In this document: piece by piece, positions 42,500 through 54,049 of the stretch | How positions within the stretch are numbered: the first letter of the stretch is position 1 | How the letters are laid out: every line of letters begins with the position of its first letter | Assembly (NCBI GenBank): GCA_963825055.1 | Contig: CAWGSK010000009.1 | Coordinates: 192,001-256,000, forward strand | Direction: 5' to 3' | Length of the DNA stretch: 64,000 nucleotides | DNA from: an uncultured Gemmatimonadales bacterium | GTDB lineage: Bacteria > Gemmatimonadota > Gemmatimonadetes > Gemmatimonadales > GWC2-71-9 | Made by a program: the position numbers and the translations under genes | Notes under the pieces: generated by a model | The model's input: only the letters and a program-made list of their open reading frames with translations | The model's database searches: none | What the model was told of the DNA's origin: nothing

Positions 42500-42865
42500 T
42501 CAGGCCTGGCTGACGAGCCAGTCGAGCGCGGCGGCCTCGTCGTCGAACGCGCGCACGTTGCGGCGCGTGAGCCGGACCAGTGACGAATACACCACCCGCT
42601 GCAGCCCGGACAGGCCCACTACGGCCGACGCCCGGATGTATGGAGCGTTGGACTGCATGAGGTCACGGATGGCGGCCAGGATGGTCGCATCGAAGCGGGA
42701 CCCGGTCACGTCGGTCAGGACGAGGAGGGAGCCGGGGGCATGGTCCCTGACGGAAGCCTTCGCCTCCGCGATGGCCTCGAGCGCCCCCGGGCCCGCCATG
42801 ATCCGGGCGAAGTCGAACCGCAGGATGCGGTGGCCATCGTGTTCGAAGAAGCTCGCGCGTGCCAC
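42500..42865 (-). CDS. STAS/SEC14-like small protein
   Basis: L-x-DVTG, AVVG and terminal F-x-x-x-x-x-A-x-x-WL pattern. Confidence 0.6.
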   Translation of the reverse strand: MARASFFEHDGHRILRFDFARIMAGPGALEAIAEAKASVRDHAPGSLLVLTDVTGSRFDATILAAIRDLMQSNAPYIRASAVVGLSGLQRVVYSSLVRLTRRNVRAFDDEAAALDWLVSQA

Positions 42866-42990
42866 TGACGATCCTCCGGGCCCTGGTTCGGAATACACGG
42901 CCAGGCCCGCAACATAGCTTGGGCGCTCCCGGTCGGGAAACGACGGGGCGGGCTATATTGCGTGACCCCACCCCAGCCCGGAGCTCCCCG

Positions 42991-44667
42991 ATGTCGTTCC
43001 TCCCCTGGCTCGCCCTCTGGTGCGCCCCCGGACCGTCCGCGCCCCCCGTGTACGACGTGGTCATCCGCCACGCCAGCATCTACGACGGGAGCGGTCATGC
43101 CCCCGTCATCGGTGACATCGCCATCAGCGGCGATACAATTGCAGCGGTCGGGTTGGTGGCCGGGAAGGGCCGCCGGGAGATAGACGCCCACGGCATGGCG
43201 GTCGCTCCCGGGTTCATCAACATGCTGAGCTGGGCGACCGAGCCGCTCATCCAGGATGGCCGCAGCCTGAGCGACATCCGGCAGGGCGTCACCCTCGAGG
43301 TCTTCGGCGAGGGCTGGTCCATGGGTCCGCTGACCGGGGCCATGCGGCGCGAGGAACTGGCCCGTCAGGGCGACATCCGCTACGACATCCCGTGGACGAC
43401 GCTCGGGGAGTACCTGGAGTACCTCACCGGGCGCGGGATAACGCCTAACGTGGCAAGCTTCGTCGGCGCGACGACGATCCGCATCCATGTCATCGGGGAA
43501 GAAGACCGACAGCCTACCGCCGCCGAGCTGGACACCATGCGCCTCCTGGTCCGGCAGGCGATGGAGGACGGGGCCCTGGGCGTCGGGAGTTCCCTTATCT
43601 ACTCGCCGGCGTTCTACGCCGGTACGAACGAGCTCATCGAGATGTCACGGGTCGCCGGTGAATACGGCGGCATGTATATCAGCCACATGCGGGACGAGGG
43701 CCGGAACGTCCTGACCGCGCTCGACGAGCTGATCACGATCGCGCGCACGGCAGGGGTTCCGGCGGAGATCTACCACCTGAAAGCCTCTGGCCGGGCCAAC
43801 TGGGCGAAGCTCGATACCGTGATCGCCCGGGTGGAGCAGGCGCGCGCCGACGGGCTCCGCATTACTGCCGACATGTATACCTACCCCGCCAGCTCCACGG
43901 GCCTGGACGCCACGATGCCGCCCTGGGTACAGGAGGGCGGCCACGATGCCTGGGTCGCTCGGCTCCGTGATCCGGCCGTCCGGACGAAGGTGGTGGCGGA
44001 AATGCGGGGCGAGGGCGAGAACTTCGACAACGCGTTCGCGAACGCGGGAGGAGCGGGCGGGATCCTGCTCGTGAGCTTCAAGCAGGACAGTCTCAAGTAC
44101 CTGACCGGGAAGACGCTGGCGGAGGTCGCGGAGATGCGCGGCACGCCGCCGGAGGAGACCGCCCTCGACCTGGTCATCCAGGACGACAGCCGGGTGGGAG
44201 CGGTCTTCTTCACCATGTCCGAGGAGAACGTCCGGAAAAAGCTGAGGCTGCCGTGGGTGAGTTTCGGCTCAGACGGGGGATCGCTGGCACCGGAGGATCC
44301 CTTTACGCGCTCGAATCCCCATCCCCGTTCCTACGGCAACTTCGCCCGCCTGCTCGGCCACTATGTGCGGGACGAGAAGATCCTTCCGCTGGAAGCCGCC
44401 ATTCACCGGCTCACGCTGCTTCCCGCAACCAATCTCAAGCTCGACCGCCGCGGGGCACTGCGGCCCGGGTGGTACGCTGACGTCGTCGTGTTCGACCCGG
44501 CCACGATTACCGACCACGCCACCTTCGCGGAGCCGCACCAGCTCGCCACCGGGGTCCGGGACGTATTCGTGAATGGCGTGCAGGTGCTGCGCGACGGGGC
44601 CCACACCGGGGCCATGCCGGGCCGGGTGGTACGCGGCCCGGGATACCGGGGGCCGCTGCCGCGCTGA
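42991..44667 (+). CDS. N-acyl-D-amino-acid deacylase family amidohydrolase
   Basis: APGFINM, SHMRDE, HLK, GSDG, HPRSYG, G-x-x-ADVVVFD. Confidence 0.9.
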   Translation: MSFLPWLALWCAPGPSAPPVYDVVIRHASIYDGSGHAPVIGDIAISGDTIAAVGLVAGKGRREIDAHGMAVAPGFINMLSWATEPLIQDGRSLSDIRQGVTLEVFGEGWSMGPLTGAMRREELARQGDIRYDIPWTTLGEYLEYLTGRGITPNVASFVGATTIRIHVIGEEDRQPTAAELDTMRLLVRQAMEDGALGVGSSLIYSPAFYAGTNELIEMSRVAGEYGGMYISHMRDEGRNVLTALDELITIARTAGVPAEIYHLKASGRANWAKLDTVIARVEQARADGLRITADMYTYPASSTGLDATMPPWVQEGGHDAWVARLRDPAVRTKVVAEMRGEGENFDNAFANAGGAGGILLVSFKQDSLKYLTGKTLAEVAEMRGTPPEETALDLVIQDDSRVGAVFFTMSEENVRKKLRLPWVSFGSDGGSLAPEDPFTRSNPHPRSYGNFARLLGHYVRDEKILPLEAAIHRLTLLPATNLKLDRRGALRPGWYADVVVFDPATITDHATFAEPHQLATGVRDVFVNGVQVLRDGAHTGAMPGRVVRGPGYRGPLPR

Positions 44668-45132
44668 TCAGGAGGGACGCAGGTCGGGGGGGCCTATCAT
44701 CTCCCGGAGTTGACCCGCCACCCGGCGCTGGCTCTTCCGGTCCTTGAGCGCGAGGAAGATCGTGTCGTCCCCGGCGAGCGTCCCCACGACCTCCGGCCAT
44801 GCCAGCCGGTCGAGCGCGACGGCGACCCTGTTCGCCTCGCCGGGCGGCGTGTGCAGGACCACCATCGCGTCACCGGCAGTCTCCACCGTGAGGAGTCCGT
44901 CCACGATCCGCTTCTCGTCCGGATCGGTCACCACCACGACAGCCGCGGCGCGGGCGTAGATCCCATCCACCTTCACCAGCCGGAGAGCCGTGATGTCGCG
45001 GCTCACCGATGACTGCGTTACCTCCCACCCCTCCGCGCGGAGTGCCTCGGCCAGTTCTTCCTGCGTCTGCACCGGCCTCGTGCTGATGAGTTCCAGGATC
45101 TTGAGATGGCGCTTCGCGCGGACGGAGGTCAT
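44668..45132 (-). CDS. argR: Arginine repressor
   Basis: TQEEL, TQSSVSRD, GTLAGDDT. Confidence 0.95.
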   Translation of the reverse strand: MTSVRAKRHLKILELISTRPVQTQEELAEALRAEGWEVTQSSVSRDITALRLVKVDGIYARAAAVVVVTDPDEKRIVDGLLTVETAGDAMVVLHTPPGEANRVAVALDRLAWPEVVGTLAGDDTIFLALKDRKSQRRVAGQLREMIGPPDLRPS

Positions 45133-46520
45133 CCTGCCCTCCCCCGCCCGCCGGCCAGCCGGGCGATCGCGGCCTCGAAGCGGCGATGTTCCCGGGTGCG
45201 CCACCGTCGGGCGGCGCTGAGGCGCGCACGCGCCGCGGGGATGCCGGGATTCCCGGGGGCACCCGTGGCGCTCCGGCGGGACAGTACATCCCCGGCGCCC
45301 GGGACCGGTACATCCTCCCCGTCATGATATGCCTTCGACACCGCGCGGTAGGCTTCGCGGAACGGCGTGCCCTGGTCCACCCGCCGCATGACCTCGTCGG
45401 TGACGAGCAGTCCGCCCTCTCCCAGCATCTGGCGACCGCGCGCGCGGTCCACCTCGAGGTGCGGGATCATCCGTCCCAGCATGTCCAGGGCGCCCTCGAG
45501 CTGGTCGAGACCCCGGAAGAGCGGTGCCTTGAGCAGCTGGAAATCGCGATGGTACCCGGACGTCAGGTTCGAGCGCAGCGCCAGGACAGCGGCAAGGTCC
45601 CCGGCCAGCGTGGCCATGCGGCCCCGGGTCAGCTCGAAGACGTCCGGGTTCCGCTTCTGCGGCATGATGCTGGAGCCGGTGGTGAACTGTTCCGGCAGGC
45701 GGAGCAGCCCGTACTCCGCGGCGGAGAAAAGGATTGTGTCGCTCGAGAAGCGCGAAAGGTCATGTCCCACCTGCACGCACCAGAAGAGCACGGCGGCCTC
45801 GAGCTTCCCGCGCCCGTTCTGGACCGTCGCCACGTTGTGGTCGAGGCCTCCGAATCCGAGGGCACGCTGGACCGCCTCCCGGTCGAGCGGCAGCGGAACA
45901 CCGTAGCCCGCGGCGCTGCCGAGCGGCGAGCGGTCCACCTGGCCCCAGAGCGCCTGCAGCGCCTCCAGTGAATCGAGCAGTCCCTCCGCGTGCGCGGCCG
46001 CCCAGAGGCCGGCGGTGGAAGGCATGGCAGCGCGCGTGTGGGTGTAGCCGGGCCAGAGCGCGGTCCGGTAGCGCGTGGCGAATCGCAGCAGCCCGCCCGT
46101 CAGGTGATCGATGGAAGCGTGTGCCTCGAGGAGACGGTCCTTGAGGTACAGGCGGAGGTCCACGGCTACCTGGTCGTTGCGGGAGCGCCCGGTGTGAATC
46201 CGCCCGCCATCCTCGCCAATGCGGCGGGTGAGCCACTTTTCCACCGCGGAATGGGCGTCCTCGTCCCGGGCACCAATAGCCAGGGATTCGTCGTCGACGG
46301 CCCGGAGTGCAGCCCGGAGGCCGGCCCTGAGCCGCGTGTACTGTGCACGCGTGACCAGGTCCGCACGCCGCAGCCCCTCCAGATGGCCCAGACTCCCCAG
46401 CACATCCCAGTAGAGCAGCCGGCCGTCCAGGTCCCGGTCATCGCCCACGGTGTACGCGAGCATGGCGGGATCGGCCCCCGCCCCGCCCCAGAGGGCATCG
46501 CCCTTCCGCTTCGGAGTCAT
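45129..46520 (-). CDS. argH: Argininosuccinate lyase
   Basis: HTGRSRNDQ, PGYTH, SPLGS, GSSIMPQKRNPD, GYHRD. Confidence 0.95.
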   Translation of the reverse strand: MTPKRKGDALWGGAGADPAMLAYTVGDDRDLDGRLLYWDVLGSLGHLEGLRRADLVTRAQYTRLRAGLRAALRAVDDESLAIGARDEDAHSAVEKWLTRRIGEDGGRIHTGRSRNDQVAVDLRLYLKDRLLEAHASIDHLTGGLLRFATRYRTALWPGYTHTRAAMPSTAGLWAAAHAEGLLDSLEALQALWGQVDRSPLGSAAGYGVPLPLDREAVQRALGFGGLDHNVATVQNGRGKLEAAVLFWCVQVGHDLSRFSSDTILFSAAEYGLLRLPEQFTTGSSIMPQKRNPDVFELTRGRMATLAGDLAAVLALRSNLTSGYHRDFQLLKAPLFRGLDQLEGALDMLGRMIPHLEVDRARGRQMLGEGGLLVTDEVMRRVDQGTPFREAYRAVSKAYHDGEDVPVPGAGDVLSRRSATGAPGNPGIPAARARLSAARRWRTREHRRFEAAIARLAGGRGRAG

Positions 46521-47587
46521 GACAGGTACTCCCGGGCCAGTTGCGCGTAGAAATCCACCGCGTCGGAAACCTCGGCCAGCTCGACGCATTCGTCGGGTGT
46601 ATGCGAGCGGCGACTCGTACCGGGTCCGCACTTGACCGCGTCGCAATGCCGCAGGAACACCCAGTCGGAGCAGGTTGGGCTTCCATAGGACGAGGCGGTC
46701 GGACGCGCGCGCAGCGCGGCAGCCAGGAGGGCGGAACCAGGCGGGGTCTCGCAGGGCACCAGCCGGTCGGAGGTGACGATGACCTCGGACTCCAGCTCGC
46801 GTCGCAGCACATCGGCCAGCTCCACGTGGGTCCAGGAGGGCGTGCTCCGCACGTCGAGAATGGCACGGGCCACCGGTGGCGTCACGTTCCGGCTCACGCC
46901 TGCCTCGACCATCGTGGGCGTGATGGTGGGCTGGCCGAGCACGGGATGAGGCCGGTCCTGGGCGAGCGAGGCCAGTCGCACCAGGTCGTGGGACAGCAGG
47001 AGGAGCGCGTTGGCGTAGGCACCATCGTCTGCCGCACGCCCTGCATGCCGCTGGTCTCCTCGCGCCACGAGGTCAATCATCATCAGTCCCCGCTGGGCTA
47101 CGGCGAACTCCAGGTTGGTGGGCTCCCCGATAACCGCGGCATCGATGCGGCCGGCGCGTGCAACCGCCTCGGGCATCGTGGTGTGCCGGGTCTCCTCGCC
47201 ATGGCCGAAGATCAGGAGCAGCCTCCCACCGATCCCCGGCTGCTCCGCGCCGAGCCGCATGGCTGCCGCGAGCATCGCCGCGACGGAGGCTTTTGCGTCC
47301 CCCGACCCGCGCCCGTAGAGGCGGCCCTCCCGGACCTCGGCCCCGAACGGGTCGCACGTCCACCCCTCGCCGGGCGGGACGACATCCAGGTGGGATACGA
47401 GCGCCAGCGTGCGTCCTCCCGCCGGTCCGACCTCGACCCGGACGCCGGCCTCGTCGCGGACGACATCGAGACCGGCCTCGCGCGCGCGCGCCGCGACCAG
47501 CGTGGCGACGGCTTCCTCGTCCCCGCTGACGGAGGGCGTCCGGACCAGTTCCCGGAGGAGCGCGTGCTCAGTCGGCGAGGTCGACAT
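46517..47587 (-). CDS. argE: M20 deacylase (N-acylcitrulline/ornithine deacylase)
   Basis: SHLDVV, GRGSGDAK, EE, GEP, SHTPDE; located inside the arg operon. Confidence 0.88.
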   Translation of the reverse strand: MSTSPTEHALLRELVRTPSVSGDEEAVATLVAARAREAGLDVVRDEAGVRVEVGPAGGRTLALVSHLDVVPPGEGWTCDPFGAEVREGRLYGRGSGDAKASVAAMLAAAMRLGAEQPGIGGRLLLIFGHGEETRHTTMPEAVARAGRIDAAVIGEPTNLEFAVAQRGLMMIDLVARGDQRHAGRAADDGAYANALLLLSHDLVRLASLAQDRPHPVLGQPTITPTMVEAGVSRNVTPPVARAILDVRSTPSWTHVELADVLRRELESEVIVTSDRLVPCETPPGSALLAAALRARPTASSYGSPTCSDWVFLRHCDAVKCGPGTSRRSHTPDECVELAEVSDAVDFYAQLAREYLS

Positions 47588-48497
47588 CCAGGTAGGTCGC
47601 CTTCTCCTTCCGGCCCACGATCATCGTGCCGCAGCCCGCCCCGGTGAACACCTCCTGGAGCAGCGCGTCAGGCGTGGCGCCACCGATGATGTGCGTACGC
47701 TCCACCCCGCCGGTCGCGGCACGAATGCACGCCTCAACCTTGGGCCGCATCCCCCCTGCGAGCGCCCCGCTGGCCATGAGAGTCGCAAGGTCGTCCGGAT
47801 CCGCGAAAGCGACCAGCGAGGACGGGTCCTCCCGGTTCCGCAGCACTCCGGGAGCGCCGGTCAGGAAGATGAGCTTCTGCGCGCGGAGCGCGGTGGCCAG
47901 CGCCTCGGCTACGGTGTCCGCATTGATGTTGTAGACATTCCCATCGGCGTCGCCGGCGAGGCTTCCCACCACGGGCACGTACCGTGCGTCGAGCAGGACC
48001 GTCAACAGCGCCGGATCCACCCGGTCGATGTCACCAACGTGCCCGAAATCCACCTCGCGGCGGTTGCCGTCATCGTCCACGATGGTCACGGGCGGGCGCC
48101 GGTGAGCCGTGATCAGCGCGCCGTCCAGGCCGCTGATGCCGACGGCATGCACCTCGTGCTCCCGCAACGCCGAGAGCAGGTCGATGCTGAGCGACCCGCC
48201 ATAGACCATCTTCGCCACCTCGAGTGTCGCATCGTCCGTGATACGACGCCCGGCCACCATGCGGGGCTCCACCCCGAGGCGTCGGCTGGTCTCGCTGGCC
48301 TGGGGTCCACCGCCGTGCACCAGCACGATCCGGATCCCCAGCGAACTGAGCAGGGCGACCTGGCCCGCAACCTCCTCCAGCACGCTGCGGTTCGCCAGCA
48401 CCTCCCCTCCAAGCTTCACGACGAAGATCTGGTCGCGATAAGCCCGGACATATCGCAGGGCGCCCTTGAGTCCCGCGATTCCACGCGAGGTGTTCAT
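47568..48497 (-). CDS. argB: N-acylglutamate kinase (no GNAT domain)
   Basis: VKLGG, VHGGG, GRRITD, NINAD, GGMRPK, GTMI; 309 aa. Confidence 0.92.
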   Translation of the reverse strand: MNTSRGIAGLKGALRYVRAYRDQIFVVKLGGEVLANRSVLEEVAGQVALLSSLGIRIVLVHGGGPQASETSRRLGVEPRMVAGRRITDDATLEVAKMVYGGSLSIDLLSALREHEVHAVGISGLDGALITAHRRPPVTIVDDDGNRREVDFGHVGDIDRVDPALLTVLLDARYVPVVGSLAGDADGNVYNINADTVAEALATALRAQKLIFLTGAPGVLRNREDPSSLVAFADPDDLATLMASGALAGGMRPKVEACIRAATGGVERTHIIGGATPDALLQEVFTGAGCGTMIVGRKEKATYLDVDLAD

Positions 48498-48534: not shown

Positions 48535-49554
48535 TCATCCGGCACCGCCCAGCAGTGAGAGCAGCAGCGCCCGCTGCACGTGCAGCCGGTTTTCGGCTTC
48601 ATCCACCACCACGCTGTTCGGGCCGTCGAGTACCGCGTCGTCCACTTCCACGTTGCGCCGCACCGGCAGGCAGTGCATCACGATGCCCCGGCCCTGGCGG
48701 GTGCTGCGCAGGCGATCCTGGGTCAGCCGCCAGTCCCGGCGCGACGCGCGCGCGGCGGCTTCCTCCTCGGGGCGGCCGTAGTGGGCCAGGCTGCCCCAGC
48801 TCTTCACGTATACCGCATCCGCCCCCACCAGGGCCTGGTCCATGTCATTGATGATGTGCACAACGCCGCCGCCGTTCTGCTGCGTCACCTGCCGGATCAG
48901 CGCCGTATCCTCCGGATCCAGTTCATAGCCATCGGGCCGCGCGATGACGAGCTCCATTCCCTGGCGCGCGGCCGCGAGCGCGGCGCTCACCGGGACCGCC
49001 GTCGGCAGCGCCTTCGGGTGCCATGCCCAGGTCAGGACGAAACGCTTGCCGTGCGTTTCCCCCAGCTTGTCGCGGAGGGTGAGCTGGTCCGCAAGTTCCT
49101 GGCAGGGATGCCGCCGGGAGCTCTCCAGGTTGATTACGGGTTTCTCGCAGTGCTCGGCGAAGAGGCGCATCACCTGGTCCTGGCGCGCCACGGCCCAGTC
49201 CGGATCGCGCGGGAAGCACCGGAGCCCGAGCACGTCGGCGTACCGGCCCAGTACGCGGGCCGCATCGATCACGTGCTCAACACCCGGTCCATCCATTACC
49301 GCCCCGCGCTCCGTCTCGAGCGCCCAGCTTCCCCGGCCCGGCTCCACCACCATCGCATGGCCGCCGTGCCGGTACATGGCGGCCTCGAAGCTCGCCCGCG
49401 TCCGCAGGCTCGGGTCCATGAACACCAGGGCCATGAGGCGCCCCTCCAGACCCCCGTGCACCTCGCCGTTGCGTACGCGCACGGCGAGTCGGAGCAGTGC
49501 CTCGACTTCCTCCGGCGACCAGTCCTCCACGGCCAGAAAGTCACGCTTGGTCAT
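48535..49554 (-). CDS. argF: N-acetyl/N-succinyl-ornithine transcarbamylase (ArgF')
   Basis: SLRTR, W77 loop, HPCQ, TWAWHPK proline-rich loop, KSWG, HCLPVRRN: hallmarks of AOTCase/SOTCase rather than OTCase. Confidence 0.92.
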   Translation of the reverse strand: MTKRDFLAVEDWSPEEVEALLRLAVRVRNGEVHGGLEGRLMALVFMDPSLRTRASFEAAMYRHGGHAMVVEPGRGSWALETERGAVMDGPGVEHVIDAARVLGRYADVLGLRCFPRDPDWAVARQDQVMRLFAEHCEKPVINLESSRRHPCQELADQLTLRDKLGETHGKRFVLTWAWHPKALPTAVPVSAALAAARQGMELVIARPDGYELDPEDTALIRQVTQQNGGGVVHIINDMDQALVGADAVYVKSWGSLAHYGRPEEEAAARASRRDWRLTQDRLRSTRQGRGIVMHCLPVRRNVEVDDAVLDGPNSVVVDEAENRLHVQRALLLSLLGGAG

Positions 49555-50702
49555 GCCAGTACCTCGGAGAGGGCAGCCAGGAGCAGGCCGGCTTCCTCCC
49601 GGGAGAAGACGAGTGGCGGCAGGAGCCGCAACGTGTGCGGATCGGTCGAGGTTCCCGTGAGAATCCGGCGCTGGAAGAGTGCCTGCTGGACCTCGCGGGC
49701 GGACCGGTCGAGCTCGAGGCCAAGCAGCAGGCCTCTCCCGTGGACCCGGGCCACGCCCAGGGCGAGGGCCTCCTCGCGAAGGTACGCGCCGATGTCGATT
49801 GCGTTGCCGATCAGCCCTTCATCGTCGATCACGGCAAGGGTGGCGAGGGCGGCGGCGCATGGCACTGGCCCGCCGCCGAAAGTGCTGCCGAGGTCGCCCG
49901 GTTCCAGCGAAGATGTGAGCGCCGGCCGCGCCAGCATTGCCGCGATGGGCAGCCCGGACCCCAGGCCCTTTGCCATGGTGAGAATGTCCGGCGTGACCCC
50001 CACCGCTTCCGCCGCAGTGAACGCTCCGCACCGGCCGACCCCGCACTGCACCTCGTCGAATACCAGCGCCGTCCCGGTGGCATCACAGATATGGCGCGCC
50101 GCCTCGAGGAACTCAGTACTGGCAGTCCGTGCCCCTGACATGCCCTGCACCGGCTCCAGGAGCACCGCGGCCGCCCCGTGGCCGACCACCCGCCGCAGGT
50201 CGTCCACGTCATTGAAGCCGGCGCGCCGGCTGAGCGGCATGCCCGCTCGCAGGGCGCCGGCCTCGTAGCGCTCCCCGTCACAGCAGGCGAGCGTGGCCAC
50301 GGTCCGGCCATGCCAGCCCCCCGTCACGGTCACCACATCCTGCCGCCCAGTCCAGCGTCGCGCGAGATGCAGGGCGTTTTCGTTCGCCTCAGCGCCGGAA
50401 TTACAGAAGAAGACGCGATCCAGTGGACGCGGGGCCAGCGCGACCAGCGCCTCCGCCAGTTCCTCCCGCATGGGCAGCGGGACCGCGGAGGAGTAGAACA
50501 GGAGTCGCGCGGCCTGCTCGGCGATCGCCGCGACCACCCGCGGGTGCGAATGACCCGTGGATGAGACCGCGTGGCCCCCATAGGCGTCCAGCCAGCGCTC
50601 GCCATCCTCGTCCACCAGCCAGCTGCCGGCCCCCATGACGGGCCGCACCGGCATGTGGGCATACACTTCGAGCAGCGCCGGCCCCCGGTCAGCCCTCAGC
50701 AT
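49551..50702 (-). CDS. argD: N-acylornithine aminotransferase
   Basis: NSGAEANE, HGRT, EPVQG, FDEVQCGVGR, AKGLG, STFGG. Confidence 0.92.
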   Translation of the reverse strand: MLRADRGPALLEVYAHMPVRPVMGAGSWLVDEDGERWLDAYGGHAVSSTGHSHPRVVAAIAEQAARLLFYSSAVPLPMREELAEALVALAPRPLDRVFFCNSGAEANENALHLARRWTGRQDVVTVTGGWHGRTVATLACCDGERYEAGALRAGMPLSRRAGFNDVDDLRRVVGHGAAAVLLEPVQGMSGARTASTEFLEAARHICDATGTALVFDEVQCGVGRCGAFTAAEAVGVTPDILTMAKGLGSGLPIAAMLARPALTSSLEPGDLGSTFGGGPVPCAAALATLAVIDDEGLIGNAIDIGAYLREEALALGVARVHGRGLLLGLELDRSAREVQQALFQRRILTGTSTDPHTLRLLPPLVFSREEAGLLLAALSEVLA

Positions 50703-51718
50703 GGGAACATGCTCGAGAGCACCAGGCCGGCGTCCTCGGGAAAACCGAGGGCCAGGTTCATTGCCTGCACGGCCTGGCCCCCGGCGCCCTTGATCAGGTT
50801 GTCGATGGCAACCATGACCTGCACTTCGAGGCCATCCGCCGAGACCGCGGGATGAATCAGCGCCATGTTCGTGCCCACCGCATGCGTCAGTTCCGGCGGC
50901 TCGTCGGTGAGGCGGATGAACCGGCGGCCGCCATAGGCCTGCCGGAACCAGCCGGCGGCATCGCCGGGCTCCGGAAGTCGCGCGTGCAGGGTGAGGTAGA
51001 TCCCGCGAACGAATGGACCAGAGTGCGTCATCAGCGTGGCGCCGGCTTCGGGGTCATCCACCCAGTGGCGCCAGCTGGAGAGCACTTCCGCCTGGTGACG
51101 GTGGCCGGCCACGGAATACGCGAAGACATTGCTGGCGCGCGCAGGATGGTGCGTGGTTGGCCGTGGATTCCGGCCGGCGCCACTGGAACCGGTGATCCCC
51201 CAGAGTGCCGGGTGAATCCCTGACCCGGCGCGGGCAAGGGGATGAAGCGCGAGCTGTGCGGCGGTCGCAAAGCAGCCGGGCACGGCCAGCGCCTTGGATC
51301 CTGCGAGGCTTCCACCGAGTACGTCCGCCAGCGCGTACGTGAATCGGCCGACGAACTCCGGCGCCGCATGAGTACCGTAGTAGTGCTCGTAGAGCCGCAG
51401 GTCCTGCACCCGGAAGTCCGCCGCCAGGTCCACGATCAACCCGGGGCCGGCTTCGAAAATCCCGTCAATCACGCGCGAGGACTCCCCGTGCTCCAGCGCG
51501 AGGAAGACGACATCACACCCGCGCGCGGCTTCGCCCGGGCTGCTGCCCGCAAACCGGCTGTCGGTCAGTTCAGCGAGGCCGGGATGAACGCTCGCGATCG
51601 GCTTGCCCGCCTGACTCCGGCTCGTCGCGAGGCACTCGGTGACTTCCGGGTGCCGCAGGAGGAGTCGCAGGAGTTCGGCGCCGACGTAGCCGGCGCCGCC
51701 GATGACTGCCACCTTCAC
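50696..51718 (-). CDS. argC: N-acyl-gamma-glutamyl-phosphate reductase
   Basis: GGAGYVG, DLAADFR, PGCFAT (catalytic Cys), SGAG, HRH, DNLIKGA-x-GQAVQ. Confidence 0.95.
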   Translation of the reverse strand: MKVAVIGGAGYVGAELLRLLLRHPEVTECLATSRSQAGKPIASVHPGLAELTDSRFAGSSPGEAARGCDVVFLALEHGESSRVIDGIFEAGPGLIVDLAADFRVQDLRLYEHYYGTHAAPEFVGRFTYALADVLGGSLAGSKALAVPGCFATAAQLALHPLARAGSGIHPALWGITGSSGAGRNPRPTTHHPARASNVFAYSVAGHRHQAEVLSSWRHWVDDPEAGATLMTHSGPFVRGIYLTLHARLPEPGDAAGWFRQAYGGRRFIRLTDEPPELTHAVGTNMALIHPAVSADGLEVQVMVAIDNLIKGAGGQAVQAMNLALGFPEDAGLVLSSMFPC

Positions 51719-52806
51719 GCGGACGCTCCTGCCTCGTAACGCTGCGCGGCCTGGTGCGCAGACAGCGCCTCCTGCACCACGGAGACCAGGGCCTCCGCAT
51801 CGCGCCGCGCGTTGTGCGCGGGCACCTGGAGCGAGGCGCGGATGTAGCTGCGGCCGACCTCGTTGTCCGTGGCGGGGCCGGTGAGCACCGTGATCGGCAG
51901 GTGGAAGTGCTCCCGCATCAGCTCGAGGGCGCCCCAGCAGGCCACCGGATCGGGGGCGGCCATGACCCACGCCGCGCCAGCCGCAGAAAGCTCGCTGTCG
52001 AGCAGGATGTCCTGCACGCCGTACTCGCCGAGAATGCCGTCGCCCAGCTCCGCCACGATCACGTCCGGGTGCGCAGCGGCAAGCCGGTTGAAGAGGCCTT
52101 TCGCCACCGGCACGGTCATGCCCGCGTGCGTGCTGGCCGCGCCGGCGTCATTGAAGGTGAGCGCCTCGACAGCGCCGGCATCCCGCATGGAAAGGGCGTC
52201 GCGCATCAGGCTCACCCCGGTGAGCTTCGCGGCCGCGACCCTGAGCCCCGTACGGACCAGGCCGCGCACCAGTTCGGTGGCCGCCACCGTCTTCCCCGCG
52301 TTCATGCACGTGCCGGCCACATACACCACCGGGATCCCCGCCTGGAGGCTGTCGGCCGGCGGGACGGCGCCATCGCGGATGTGTGCGGGCCGGCCGATGC
52401 GGTCGCCCAGGGCGGGGAAGGTCAGCACGGCGCCGAGGACCTCCGCCCTGAACGGCGGCCCGATGTCGGGATTCACCGAGGTACAGCGGCCCAGCACACC
52501 GCCAAGGTTCAGCACCTCCAGCGTATCACCAACCGCGATCGTGGACGGCACCATTCCCGCGTAGCCTCGCAGCGCGCGCCTGGCGCCGAGCGTGCCGGCC
52601 AGCACGTCCCCCGCCCGGAGCGCCACCATCCGCCCGGCGATATCTTCCACCGTGTTGTATGTGGACTTGTCCTCGAGCACCCGGACGGCCAGGACATAAC
52701 CATCCGCGGCCACGATGTCCGGGCCGACCATCACCTCGCTTTCGAGGTGGGCGTTCCGCGTGCTGGAGGAGATCCGGTCGAGCCGGACGCGGGTCGTCAC
52801 AACCAT
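51715..52806 (-). CDS. DUF1611/DgcN-like protein; candidate N-acylglutamate synthase
   Basis: VAGTCMNAGKT, AAKLTG, DAGA..F-x-DAG..ST, VAELGDG; tightly coupled to argG (3-nt gap) and argC (GTGA overlap). Confidence 0.7.
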   Translation of the reverse strand: MVVTTRVRLDRISSSTRNAHLESEVMVGPDIVAADGYVLAVRVLEDKSTYNTVEDIAGRMVALRAGDVLAGTLGARRALRGYAGMVPSTIAVGDTLEVLNLGGVLGRCTSVNPDIGPPFRAEVLGAVLTFPALGDRIGRPAHIRDGAVPPADSLQAGIPVVYVAGTCMNAGKTVAATELVRGLVRTGLRVAAAKLTGVSLMRDALSMRDAGAVEALTFNDAGAASTHAGMTVPVAKGLFNRLAAAHPDVIVAELGDGILGEYGVQDILLDSELSAAGAAWVMAAPDPVACWGALELMREHFHLPITVLTGPATDNEVGRSYIRASLQVPAHNARRDAEALVSVVQEALSAHQAAQRYEAGASA

Positions 52807-52809
52807 GGG

Positions 52810-54012
52810 TTACCCTCCCGCATGGCGGCGCGCCACGCGCTCCGCCAGCAGCGACGGGATCGCGGACACGCGCGCGAATGCGCGGGCCTCGTCCCCGGAC
52901 CAGAGGCTGTGATCCTCGCCGTACCGCGCGACGGAGGAATCCATGAGGGAGCACGGGCTGCGCGTCCCCACCACGTGGAACCTGCCCGCGGCCAGGCGGA
53001 CCCGTGTCTCGCCCGTGACGTGCCGCTGTGAACTCCCGATCATGGCTTCGATGTCCCGCATCGCCGGATCGAAGTACTGGCCCTCGTGGAGACGGTCGCC
53101 ATAGAACCGGGCGAGCTGGTCCTTCCAGAAGACCTGCCATCGGGTGAGGGTCAGCTTCTCCAGCTCCCGGTGCGCCGCGATCAGCACCAGTGCCGCGCCG
53201 GCCTCGAACCCGATGCGCCCCTTGATGCCGAGCACCGTCTCTCCCACGTGGATGCCGCGGCCAATTCCACGGACCAGCGTGCGCATCCCCAGCTCGGCGA
53301 CCAGCCCGGGACCCTCCAGCCGAGCCCCGTCCAGGGCGACCGGCAGGCCTCGTTCCCACTCGATGACGACCTCCTCGGCCCCGGGCGCGTCGGCCGGGGG
53401 CTCCAGCAGTTCGTCGGGCGGACCCTGCCATGTATCGTGGGTCCAGCCGCCGCCCCAGGTGGTGCCCCACCCACCCCGGTTCACCGAGTACGCCCCCGAC
53501 CCCGCAGGAACCGGCAGGCCGCGCTCCTCCAGGAACGCAATCGCCTGGTCGCGCGCAAGCCCGAGCTCCCGGATCGGTGTCACGATCTCCAGTTCCGGGG
53601 CCAGCACGCGAAAGGCGACGTCAAACCGCACCTGGTCGTTCCCCGCCCCGGTCGAACCATGCGCCACGGCCGACGCCCCAACCTGGCGCGCGACATCCAG
53701 CACGGACATCGCCTGCTGGGTACGCTCGGCCGCCACGCTCAGCGGGTAGACCTCCCCGCGAAGAACATTCCCCTGAATCAGGTACCGGACGAAATGATCG
53801 AAGACCTCGCGACGGGCGTCCACGAGGTGGTGGGCCGCCGCCCCCACCGCACTAGCCTGGCGCCGGACGGCCTCCAGTCCTTCCGGCGTGGTGCCGCCGG
53901 TGTCGACGAATACGGTATGCACCTCCCAGCCCCGCTCACTCAGCCAGGGGACACAGAAAGAGGTATCGAGGCCCCCCGAGAAGGCGAGCACAATGCGTCG
54001 GTCAGTTTGCAT
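52810..54012 (-). CDS. argG: Argininosuccinate synthase
   Basis: LAFSGGLDTS, YPLS, AHGSTGAGNDQVRF, GIKGR..FEA. Confidence 0.96.
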   Translation of the reverse strand: MQTDRRIVLAFSGGLDTSFCVPWLSERGWEVHTVFVDTGGTTPEGLEAVRRQASAVGAAAHHLVDARREVFDHFVRYLIQGNVLRGEVYPLSVAAERTQQAMSVLDVARQVGASAVAHGSTGAGNDQVRFDVAFRVLAPELEIVTPIRELGLARDQAIAFLEERGLPVPAGSGAYSVNRGGWGTTWGGGWTHDTWQGPPDELLEPPADAPGAEEVVIEWERGLPVALDGARLEGPGLVAELGMRTLVRGIGRGIHVGETVLGIKGRIGFEAGAALVLIAAHRELEKLTLTRWQVFWKDQLARFYGDRLHEGQYFDPAMRDIEAMIGSSQRHVTGETRVRLAAGRFHVVGTRSPCSLMDSSVARYGEDHSLWSGDEARAFARVSAIPSLLAERVARRHAGG

Positions 54013-54013
54013 A

Positions 54014-54049
54014 ATGCATAAATATGCAACATGCCGACCCGGAGCGCAA
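54014..54049 (-). promoter_or_regulatory. ARG box overlapping the arg operon promoter
   Basis: Palindrome TGCATA-AA-TATGCA (54014-54027); on the minus strand TTGCGC-N17-CATATT. Confidence 0.8.

Follow-up and report, generated by a model that had tools for sequence, protein, structure and literature searches.

The first step of arginine synthesis, the N-acylation of glutamate, is a pathway slot filled in different organisms by ArgA, short ArgA, ArgJ or LysW/LysX, and in Bacteroides by BT3761, a probable N-succinylglutamate synthase (PMC7311316). Glutamate is also acylated by DgcN of the DUF1611 family, a D-glutamate N-acetyltransferase whose fold is accordingly able to acylate this amino acid (PMC12363236). 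Closest to the gene described here is the ACG33_RS14135 family of Price et al. (GapMind, 2026), who predicted a first-step role for a Steroidobacter protein, listed it in their table as a prediction without experimental evidence and counted 109 genera (PMC13759103; bioRxiv 10.1101/2024.10.14.618325, Appendix 2). That family is described as lying in arginine operons with argB, argC, argD, argF', argE, argG, argH and argR, as never occurring with ArgA, as accompanying a succinyl-type ArgF' and as bearing a weak structural likeness to the DgcN structure 7XRJ; Appendix 2 tests the exclusion against Pseudomonas ArgA only and makes no mention of an acyl donor, of ATP or of P-loop residues. We analyzed a 64,000-nucleotide window from an uncultured Gemmatimonadales bacterium (GenBank assembly GCA_963825055.1, contig CAWGSK010000009.1, positions 192,001 to 256,000), in which a gene that we call X (51715..52806, minus strand, 363 amino acids) sits in an arginine operon and is predicted to encode an N-succinyl-L-glutamate synthase.

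Full-length comparison of X with four Steroidobacteraceae proteins gives 47-48% identity and a bit-score ratio of 0.40, where Price et al. set their threshold at 0.30, and X shares one supported clade with these proteins. On these grounds X very probably belongs to the same family as their Steroidobacter protein, as judged through the Steroidobacteraceae stand-ins. The initial annotation had allowed for an earlier computational proposal of the role, and this is that proposal (PMC13759103); the first-step role is already predicted in print and hence not new. What we add is a test of exclusion extended to ArgJ, short ArgA and LysX, the failure of X to join the DUF1611 family, a case for ATP chemistry, and sister branches that have no part in arginine operons.

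X is the second of nine open reading frames, all on the minus strand, that read argG-X-argC-argD-argF'-argB-argE-argH-argR. The junctions, in order, are +3, −4, −7, −4, +37, −20, −4 and −4 nucleotides (with the argH start corrected to 46520), so that the order and tight packing first read from the sequence hold, with six overlaps of 4 to 20 nucleotides and a gap of 3 between argG and X. The source genome (G000) is 87.1% complete and 6.1% contaminated, and the absences that follow are those of that assembly. Profile searches found no ArgJ; the sole match to the classical ArgA model (TIGR01890) was ArgB itself, under the cut-off, and the short ArgA models gave weak matches only (28 bits or less, where the cut-offs are 154 and 180), which bears out the lack of argA and argJ noted at the outset. 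ArgB likewise proved to have no GNAT extension, AA_kinase being the only domain in its 309 amino acids. A search of the genome with PF04768 was uninformative, as control genomes were without a match too.

X is a real gene, as its codon pattern, its homologues and a confident fold model attest. The GC content at its three codon positions is 0.74, 0.51 and 0.89, and because argG and argC show the same pattern, a plus-strand reading frame overlapping X is a shadow. Homology to X was found for 2997 of 8000 scored candidates, the best 120 (X itself aside) being 77-88% identical, and AlphaFold2 modeled the whole protein with a predicted local distance difference test score (pLDDT) of 97. One related copy (L027:10001-10465) changes frame near codon 45, through either an assembly error or a broken gene.

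The distribution of X points to its role. A GTDB scan yielded 591 relatives, and among the best 80 loci, which we kept as the neighborhood set (mostly Gemmatimonadota, some Myxococcota, Acidobacteriota and Elusimicrobiota, and one Planctomycetia record), argC comes immediately after X in all 80 and argG occurs in 78, the other two loci ending where X starts. Each model was also run as a profile search over a single sample of 201 genomes from the phylum, of which 93 matched the X profile at E ≤ 0.001; leaving out 27 weak P-loop matches and one further genome (G043) gave 65 X genomes. G043, at one stage taken for an X genome without argC nearby, was dropped as a member of a sister subfamily (35% identity, a CapA/ABC gene cluster, a separate clade). 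Across the sample, argC was found in 159 genomes, ArgJ in 64, short ArgA in 71, LysX in 18 and X in 65. All 65 X genomes carry argC and none carries ArgJ or short ArgA; LysX occurs in two of them, beside a second argC. Classical ArgA was absent from all 65 genomes searched for it (64 X genomes and G043), the match in the source genome again falling under the cut-off. Among the 159 argC genomes, 64 have no ArgJ, short ArgA or LysX, and X is present in 63 of these 64, while 93 of the 94 argC genomes without X have at least one of the three; ArgJ, short ArgA and LysX fill the first-step slot in relatives that do without X. In the window's own family, X occurs in 56 genomes and ArgJ with short ArgA in 26, which sum to the 82 with argC. 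A second sample of 151 genomes, centered on a Myxococcota genome and compared for X and ArgJ, had 31 genomes with X and 78 with ArgJ, with an overlap of zero against 16 expected. These counts take in four genomes flagged as unpublished (G053, G178, G153 and G093), on which no conclusion rests. Both the co-occurrence with arg operons and the anti-correlation with argA and argJ that the initial annotation had put forward for checking were therefore found.

Taken together, operon context and mutual exclusion make it highly likely that X is the glutamate N-acylating first enzyme of arginine synthesis, whatever its chemistry. Family and fold scans brought up no relation in sequence or fold between X and GNAT proteins, ArgJ or ATP-grasp proteins. 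It is unlikely that X instead plays another part in the pathway, whether by supplying the acyl donor, by maturing or regulating ArgC or ArgB as a nucleoside triphosphatase (NTPase), or by recycling the acyl group, with an unrecognized GNAT carrying out the first step. Such a part would suit a fold that is common to the accessory NTPases ApbC, HypB, UreG and MeaB, the constant adjacency to argC, the presence of weakly matching GNATs in a genome 87% complete, and sister subfamilies in export and phosphonate clusters; it sits poorly with the near-complete complementarity between X and ArgJ, short ArgA and LysX in argC genomes (63 of 64 and 93 of 94, as above). Eight fused forms of X, all singletons, are weak evidence for its role: an ArgG-X fusion (P0392) is full-length and clean and an X-ArgB fusion (P0231) is plausible, while a third (P0232) looks frameshifted and in several of the rest one partner is truncated.

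The initial annotation had reached the first-step role by way of the DUF1611/DgcN family, and here it needs amending: the role, as argued from operon and exclusion, is supported, whereas membership in the DgcN family is not, and the acyl group is probably succinyl. The four motifs on which the assignment was based (GTCMNAGKT, KLTG, DAGA and ELGDG) are all present in X. Membership is nonetheless rejected, as the Pfam DUF1611 model PF07755 scores 17.6 bits over 40 residues (158-197) against a curated cut-off of 25. Over 68 homologues of X (lowest identity 28%), PF07755 matches 21 at E ≤ 0.01, compared with 32 for MobB and 26 for CbiA, and the Rossmann-like DUF1611_N domain (PF17396) matches neither X nor any of the 68. 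The motifs GK[M/R], ATGQTG and EGQG of three solved DUF1611-type members are replaced in X by GKT, AAKLTG and ELGDG. The same genome moreover holds a true DUF1611/DgcN gene on another contig (C12; L002:1087-2169; 254 bits, E = 1.7e-56 to 7XRJ), whose product has the GK[M/R] and ATGQTG motifs, matches PF17396 with 91 bits and resembles X only in a 29-residue P-loop stretch. This gene directly follows a PspA/IM30 gene. True DUF1611 genes are found in 129 of the 201 genomes, with or without X.

The model of X comprises two domains. The first, of about 150 residues and nearly all beta (52357..52806, minus strand), is modeled with a pLDDT of 92 when folded alone and probably serves substrate recognition; its residues S14, Y50, E54 and R76 are conserved. 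The second, a P-loop domain with a BioD/DUF1611-like fold (residues 156 to 350 approximately; 51757..52341, minus strand), holds G171, K172, T173, K194, D203, E253 and D286, the first three within a Walker A motif, GTCMNAGKT, at residues 165-173 (52288..52314, minus strand). G171, K172, K194, E253 and D286 are invariant in all 68 homologues, position 173 is T or S in every one, and position 203 is D in 66 and E in two. Searched as a sequence against the PDB, X found nothing at E ≤ 1; its family profile matched FtsY, BioD and MobB through the P-loop, with no DUF1611 structure among 40 PDB matches. ESM Atlas returned just unnamed or automatically named clusters. For the N-terminal domain alone, the best match in a fold search was the LexA C-terminal domain at Z 3.6 (root-mean-square deviation (rmsd) 4.6, 77 residues aligned), with no DUF1611 chain listed, and Foldseek gave no match at E ≤ 0.001, results that do not establish that the fold is new or that it differs.

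For the P-loop domain, a VIA structure search placed DUF1611 first (2G0T, Z 17.1, rmsd 2.9, 180 aligned; 2OBN, Z 16.2), ahead of BioD (1A82, Z 15.6, rmsd 3.2, 179 aligned), ApbC (Z 15.5) and DgcN (7XRJ, Z 15.3, rmsd 3.0, 182 aligned), each of these matches spanning about 180 residues at 10-14% identity; CTP synthase (Z 14.8) and formyltetrahydrofolate synthetase (Z 13.0) scored lower. Foldseek gave BioD as all four best matches. The modeled likeness to DgcN is real, is limited to the P-loop domain and is not particular to DgcN; the structural resemblance anticipated in the initial annotation is there, and BioD equals it. X and the DUF1611 proteins (7XRJ, 2OBN and 2G0T) share the fold of this domain and, if the prediction for X holds, the acylation of a glutamate amine, and they differ in the catabolic D-glutamate context of DgcN, in its DUF1611_N domain and in their motifs.

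BioD, CTP synthase and formyltetrahydrofolate synthetase make C-N bonds by way of a phosphorylated intermediate. In an hhalign comparison, K172, T173, K194 and E253 of X fell on K15, T16, K37 and E115 of E. coli BioD with a probability of 71.5, compared with 15.9 for the genome's own DUF1611 protein; the roles of the P-loop and of Lys37 in BioD are described in PMC8659263. X resembles BioD and the P-loop C-N ligases in its fold and in these four residues, and differs from BioD in failing to match TIGR00347 at E ≤ 0.01, in its extra beta domain of 150 amino acids and in its arginine operon context. X appears to keep the ATP and Mg residues of BioD, which DgcN-type proteins partly lack. Because these residues are retained in X and changed in DgcN-type proteins, we place an ATP ligase ahead of a succinyl-CoA transferase, and tentatively propose, at a little under an even chance, that X joins succinate to L-glutamate as an ATP-dependent ligase of the dethiobiotin-synthetase type.

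It is also possible, if doubtful, that X is a first-step enzyme that works as an acyl-coenzyme A (acyl-CoA) transferase on succinyl-CoA and L-glutamate, much as DgcN does, a reading nearest to that of Price et al. and of the initial annotation. All of the evidence for the first-step role fits it equally, and DUF1611 structures head the VIA search, with DgcN among the matches. To our knowledge, the known N-acylglutamate synthases use acyl-CoA. Price et al. in addition report for the Steroidobacter protein a Foldseek match to 7XRJ at E = 1.4e-7. Against it stand the retained Mg-ATP residues and the missing DUF1611_N Rossmann-like domain, which would be the domain that binds CoA in DgcN.

As for the acyl group, a succinyl-type carbamoyltransferase is recognized by A, S, P, V or Q, by P, and by V, I or E at positions 92, 185 and 302 of N-acetylornithine carbamoyltransferase (AOTCase), respectively (PMC4581275). 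ArgF' of the window has V92, P184 and E303, all three of the succinyl type, and because of these the product of X here is probably N-succinyl-L-glutamate, succinyl and not acetyl. Over 65 loci the ArgF' triads are VPE in 55, APV in four, VPV in three, and TPE, IPE and VPI in one each, position 92 being V in 59, A in four, and I and T in one each. That X makes N-acetyl-L-glutamate in this genome is very unlikely: the NCBIfam name of ArgF', N-acetylornithine carbamoyltransferase, and the use of an ordinary ornithine carbamoyltransferase (OTC) by some X genomes would agree with an acetyl product, but the three diagnostic residues are scored as succinyl-type both in this window and in all 65 loci with ArgF', and the best PDB sequence match to ArgF', the AOTCase chain 3L06, has Val at position 92.

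In the mechanism that we favor, the P-loop domain of X would bind Mg-ATP through K172, T173, D203 and E253, and a carboxyl group of succinate would be phosphorylated. The acyl phosphate would be held by K194 and attacked by the alpha-amino group of L-glutamate, with release of ADP and phosphate. The succinylated intermediates would then pass through ArgB, ArgC, ArgD and ArgF' to succinylcitrulline, from which the M20 enzyme would take off succinate, leaving ArgG and ArgH to finish arginine. The gene, its operon and distribution, the predicted fold, the conserved residues and those of ArgF' are what the analysis shows; we infer the whole chemistry of X, including its nucleotide and acyl donor, and the part played by the beta domain.

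Several points weigh against succinyl-transfer by an ATP ligase, or against the distribution argument beneath it. The X, ArgJ and ArgA counts come from related metagenome-assembled genomes and are not independent, so we claim no P value for them, and the first-step enzymes scored across the whole sample were ArgJ, short ArgA and LysX. D203 of X matches D54 of BioD by eye, where hhalign put a gap, and the aligned residues of BioD other than those of the P-loop and Lys37 are ones that we take to bind Mg-ATP or the phosphorylated intermediate. The structural family ranked first in the VIA search includes a CoA-dependent acetyltransferase, and the same conserved residues recur in sister subfamilies outside arginine operons; on sequence grounds they would indicate nucleotide binding at most, and not the bond that is made. 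The literature that we searched, which included few subscription papers, contained no experimental test of any family member and no ATP-ligase proposal. Finally, an ArgF' match is missing in 11 of the 65 X genomes, and an ordinary OTC turned up in each of the five ArgF'-less genomes tested (three from that group of 11, two from Myxococcota), so that a succinyl product is not established family-wide. X operons without argF' include L084:6908-11524 (G057), L071, L074 and L075. In the three genomes tested among those with such operons (G057, G201 and G202) an ordinary OTC is encoded elsewhere, and so X would also serve an ornithine-type route.

Relatives of X with 25-35% identity share its conserved residues and lie outside arginine operons. 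The sister subfamily of the G043 type (L083:6574-13173; L102-L142) has as its conserved neighbors a gene for a secreted protein, an M36-like/CapA gene and an ABC exporter; over 41 metagenome loci of this type, arginine genes were found at none, M36-like genes at 29, ABC exporter genes at 21 and CapA genes at 18. Distant relatives, which group together in the tree on long branches, reside on two Bacillaceae plasmids, those of Priestia megaterium (NZ_CP085446.1; L099:3715-12403) and Bacillus paranthracis (NZ_CP116206.1; L101:1799-10122). Both plasmid clusters contain a phosphoenolpyruvate mutase, a split thiamine pyrophosphate enzyme, a carbamoyltransferase-like gene and ATP-grasp ligases, and are apparent phosphonate natural-product clusters, for which no described pathway was matched. 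NCBI labels such relatives of X as DUF1611, dethiobiotin synthase or hypothetical.

The eight arg names given to the genes around X hold up in family scans. NCBIfam cut-offs are passed by ArgG (52810..54012; argininosuccinate synthase, TIGR00032, 281 bits, cut-off 268), ArgC (50696..51718; N-acylglutamyl-phosphate reductase, TIGR01850, 310 bits, cut-off 234), whose gene shares a 4-nucleotide overlap with the stop codon of X, ArgF' (48535..49554; N-acylornithine carbamoyltransferase, PRK04523, 415 bits, cut-off 288), ArgB (47568..48497; N-acylglutamate kinase, TIGR00761, 221 bits, cut-off 151) and ArgH (45129..46520; argininosuccinate lyase, TIGR00838, 282 bits, cut-off 280). Two proteins match below their NCBIfam cut-offs: ArgD (49551..50702), a class III aminotransferase by PF00202 that scores 324 bits with TIGR00707, and the ArgE-like M20 deacylase (46517..47587; PF01546 and PF07687, with TIGR01910 under cut-off), a probable succinylcitrulline desuccinylase. 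The arginine repressor ArgR (44668..45132) passes both Pfam cut-offs, PF01316 and PF02863; all eight genes, like X, are on the minus strand. ArgB (47568-48497) begins with a helix and has the motif EVFTGAGCGT at its C-terminus, features of a type that we take to mark arginine-inhibited kinases, and because of them feedback control may act at the second step; E282, F284, G288, G290 and T291 are invariant across 31 ArgB sequences. The contig also carries, beyond the window, a second, divergent argR-like gene (G000:C9:25105-25533, 35% identity). Within the window, an Amidohydro_3 protein is encoded on the opposite, plus strand (42859-44667), and its end is a single base away from the stop codon of argR.

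Two nucleotides before the ATG of argG stands a palindrome, TGCATAAATATGCA (54015..54028), which is a probable ArgR operator, or ARG box, by its position, by the argR gene in the operon and by a consensus that we presume for such boxes. The pattern, derived from this same window, matches the window twice against 0.78 expected, which is within chance, so the ARG box of the initial annotation gains its weight from recurrence: of 72 related loci, 63 carry the palindrome at the argG start with at most two mismatches, and none carries it in control windows inside argG. The ArgR reading of the recurring element stays at the level of probable. Within 53990-54030 the palindrome stops short of the argG ATG and a second half-site overlaps it, a layout repeated in many related loci. 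Upstream of argG, a search for a sigma-70 promoter or a terminator gave neither, and because the 2-nucleotide spacing leaves no room for a ribosome-binding site, the arrangement suggests a leaderless, ArgR-controlled argG transcript.

If confirmed as the first-step enzyme, X would close the gap at the start of arginine synthesis in 65 of 201 sampled Gemmatimonadota, about one third, and in 31 of 151 genomes of the Myxococcota-centered sample, about one fifth; without X in this role, such genomes would be scored as auxotrophs. Were X an ATP ligase, arginine synthesis would begin without acyl-CoA, by acyl-phosphate chemistry of the BioD type, and the succinate freed later by the ArgE-like enzyme could be reused. 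X would then bring the first assigned role to an unnamed family of P-loop ligases whose beta domain matched no solved fold and whose other branches lie in phosphonate natural-product and CapA/ABC export clusters, and an ATP-driven ligase, if confirmed, would represent both a new start to the pathway and a first function for a large unannotated family.

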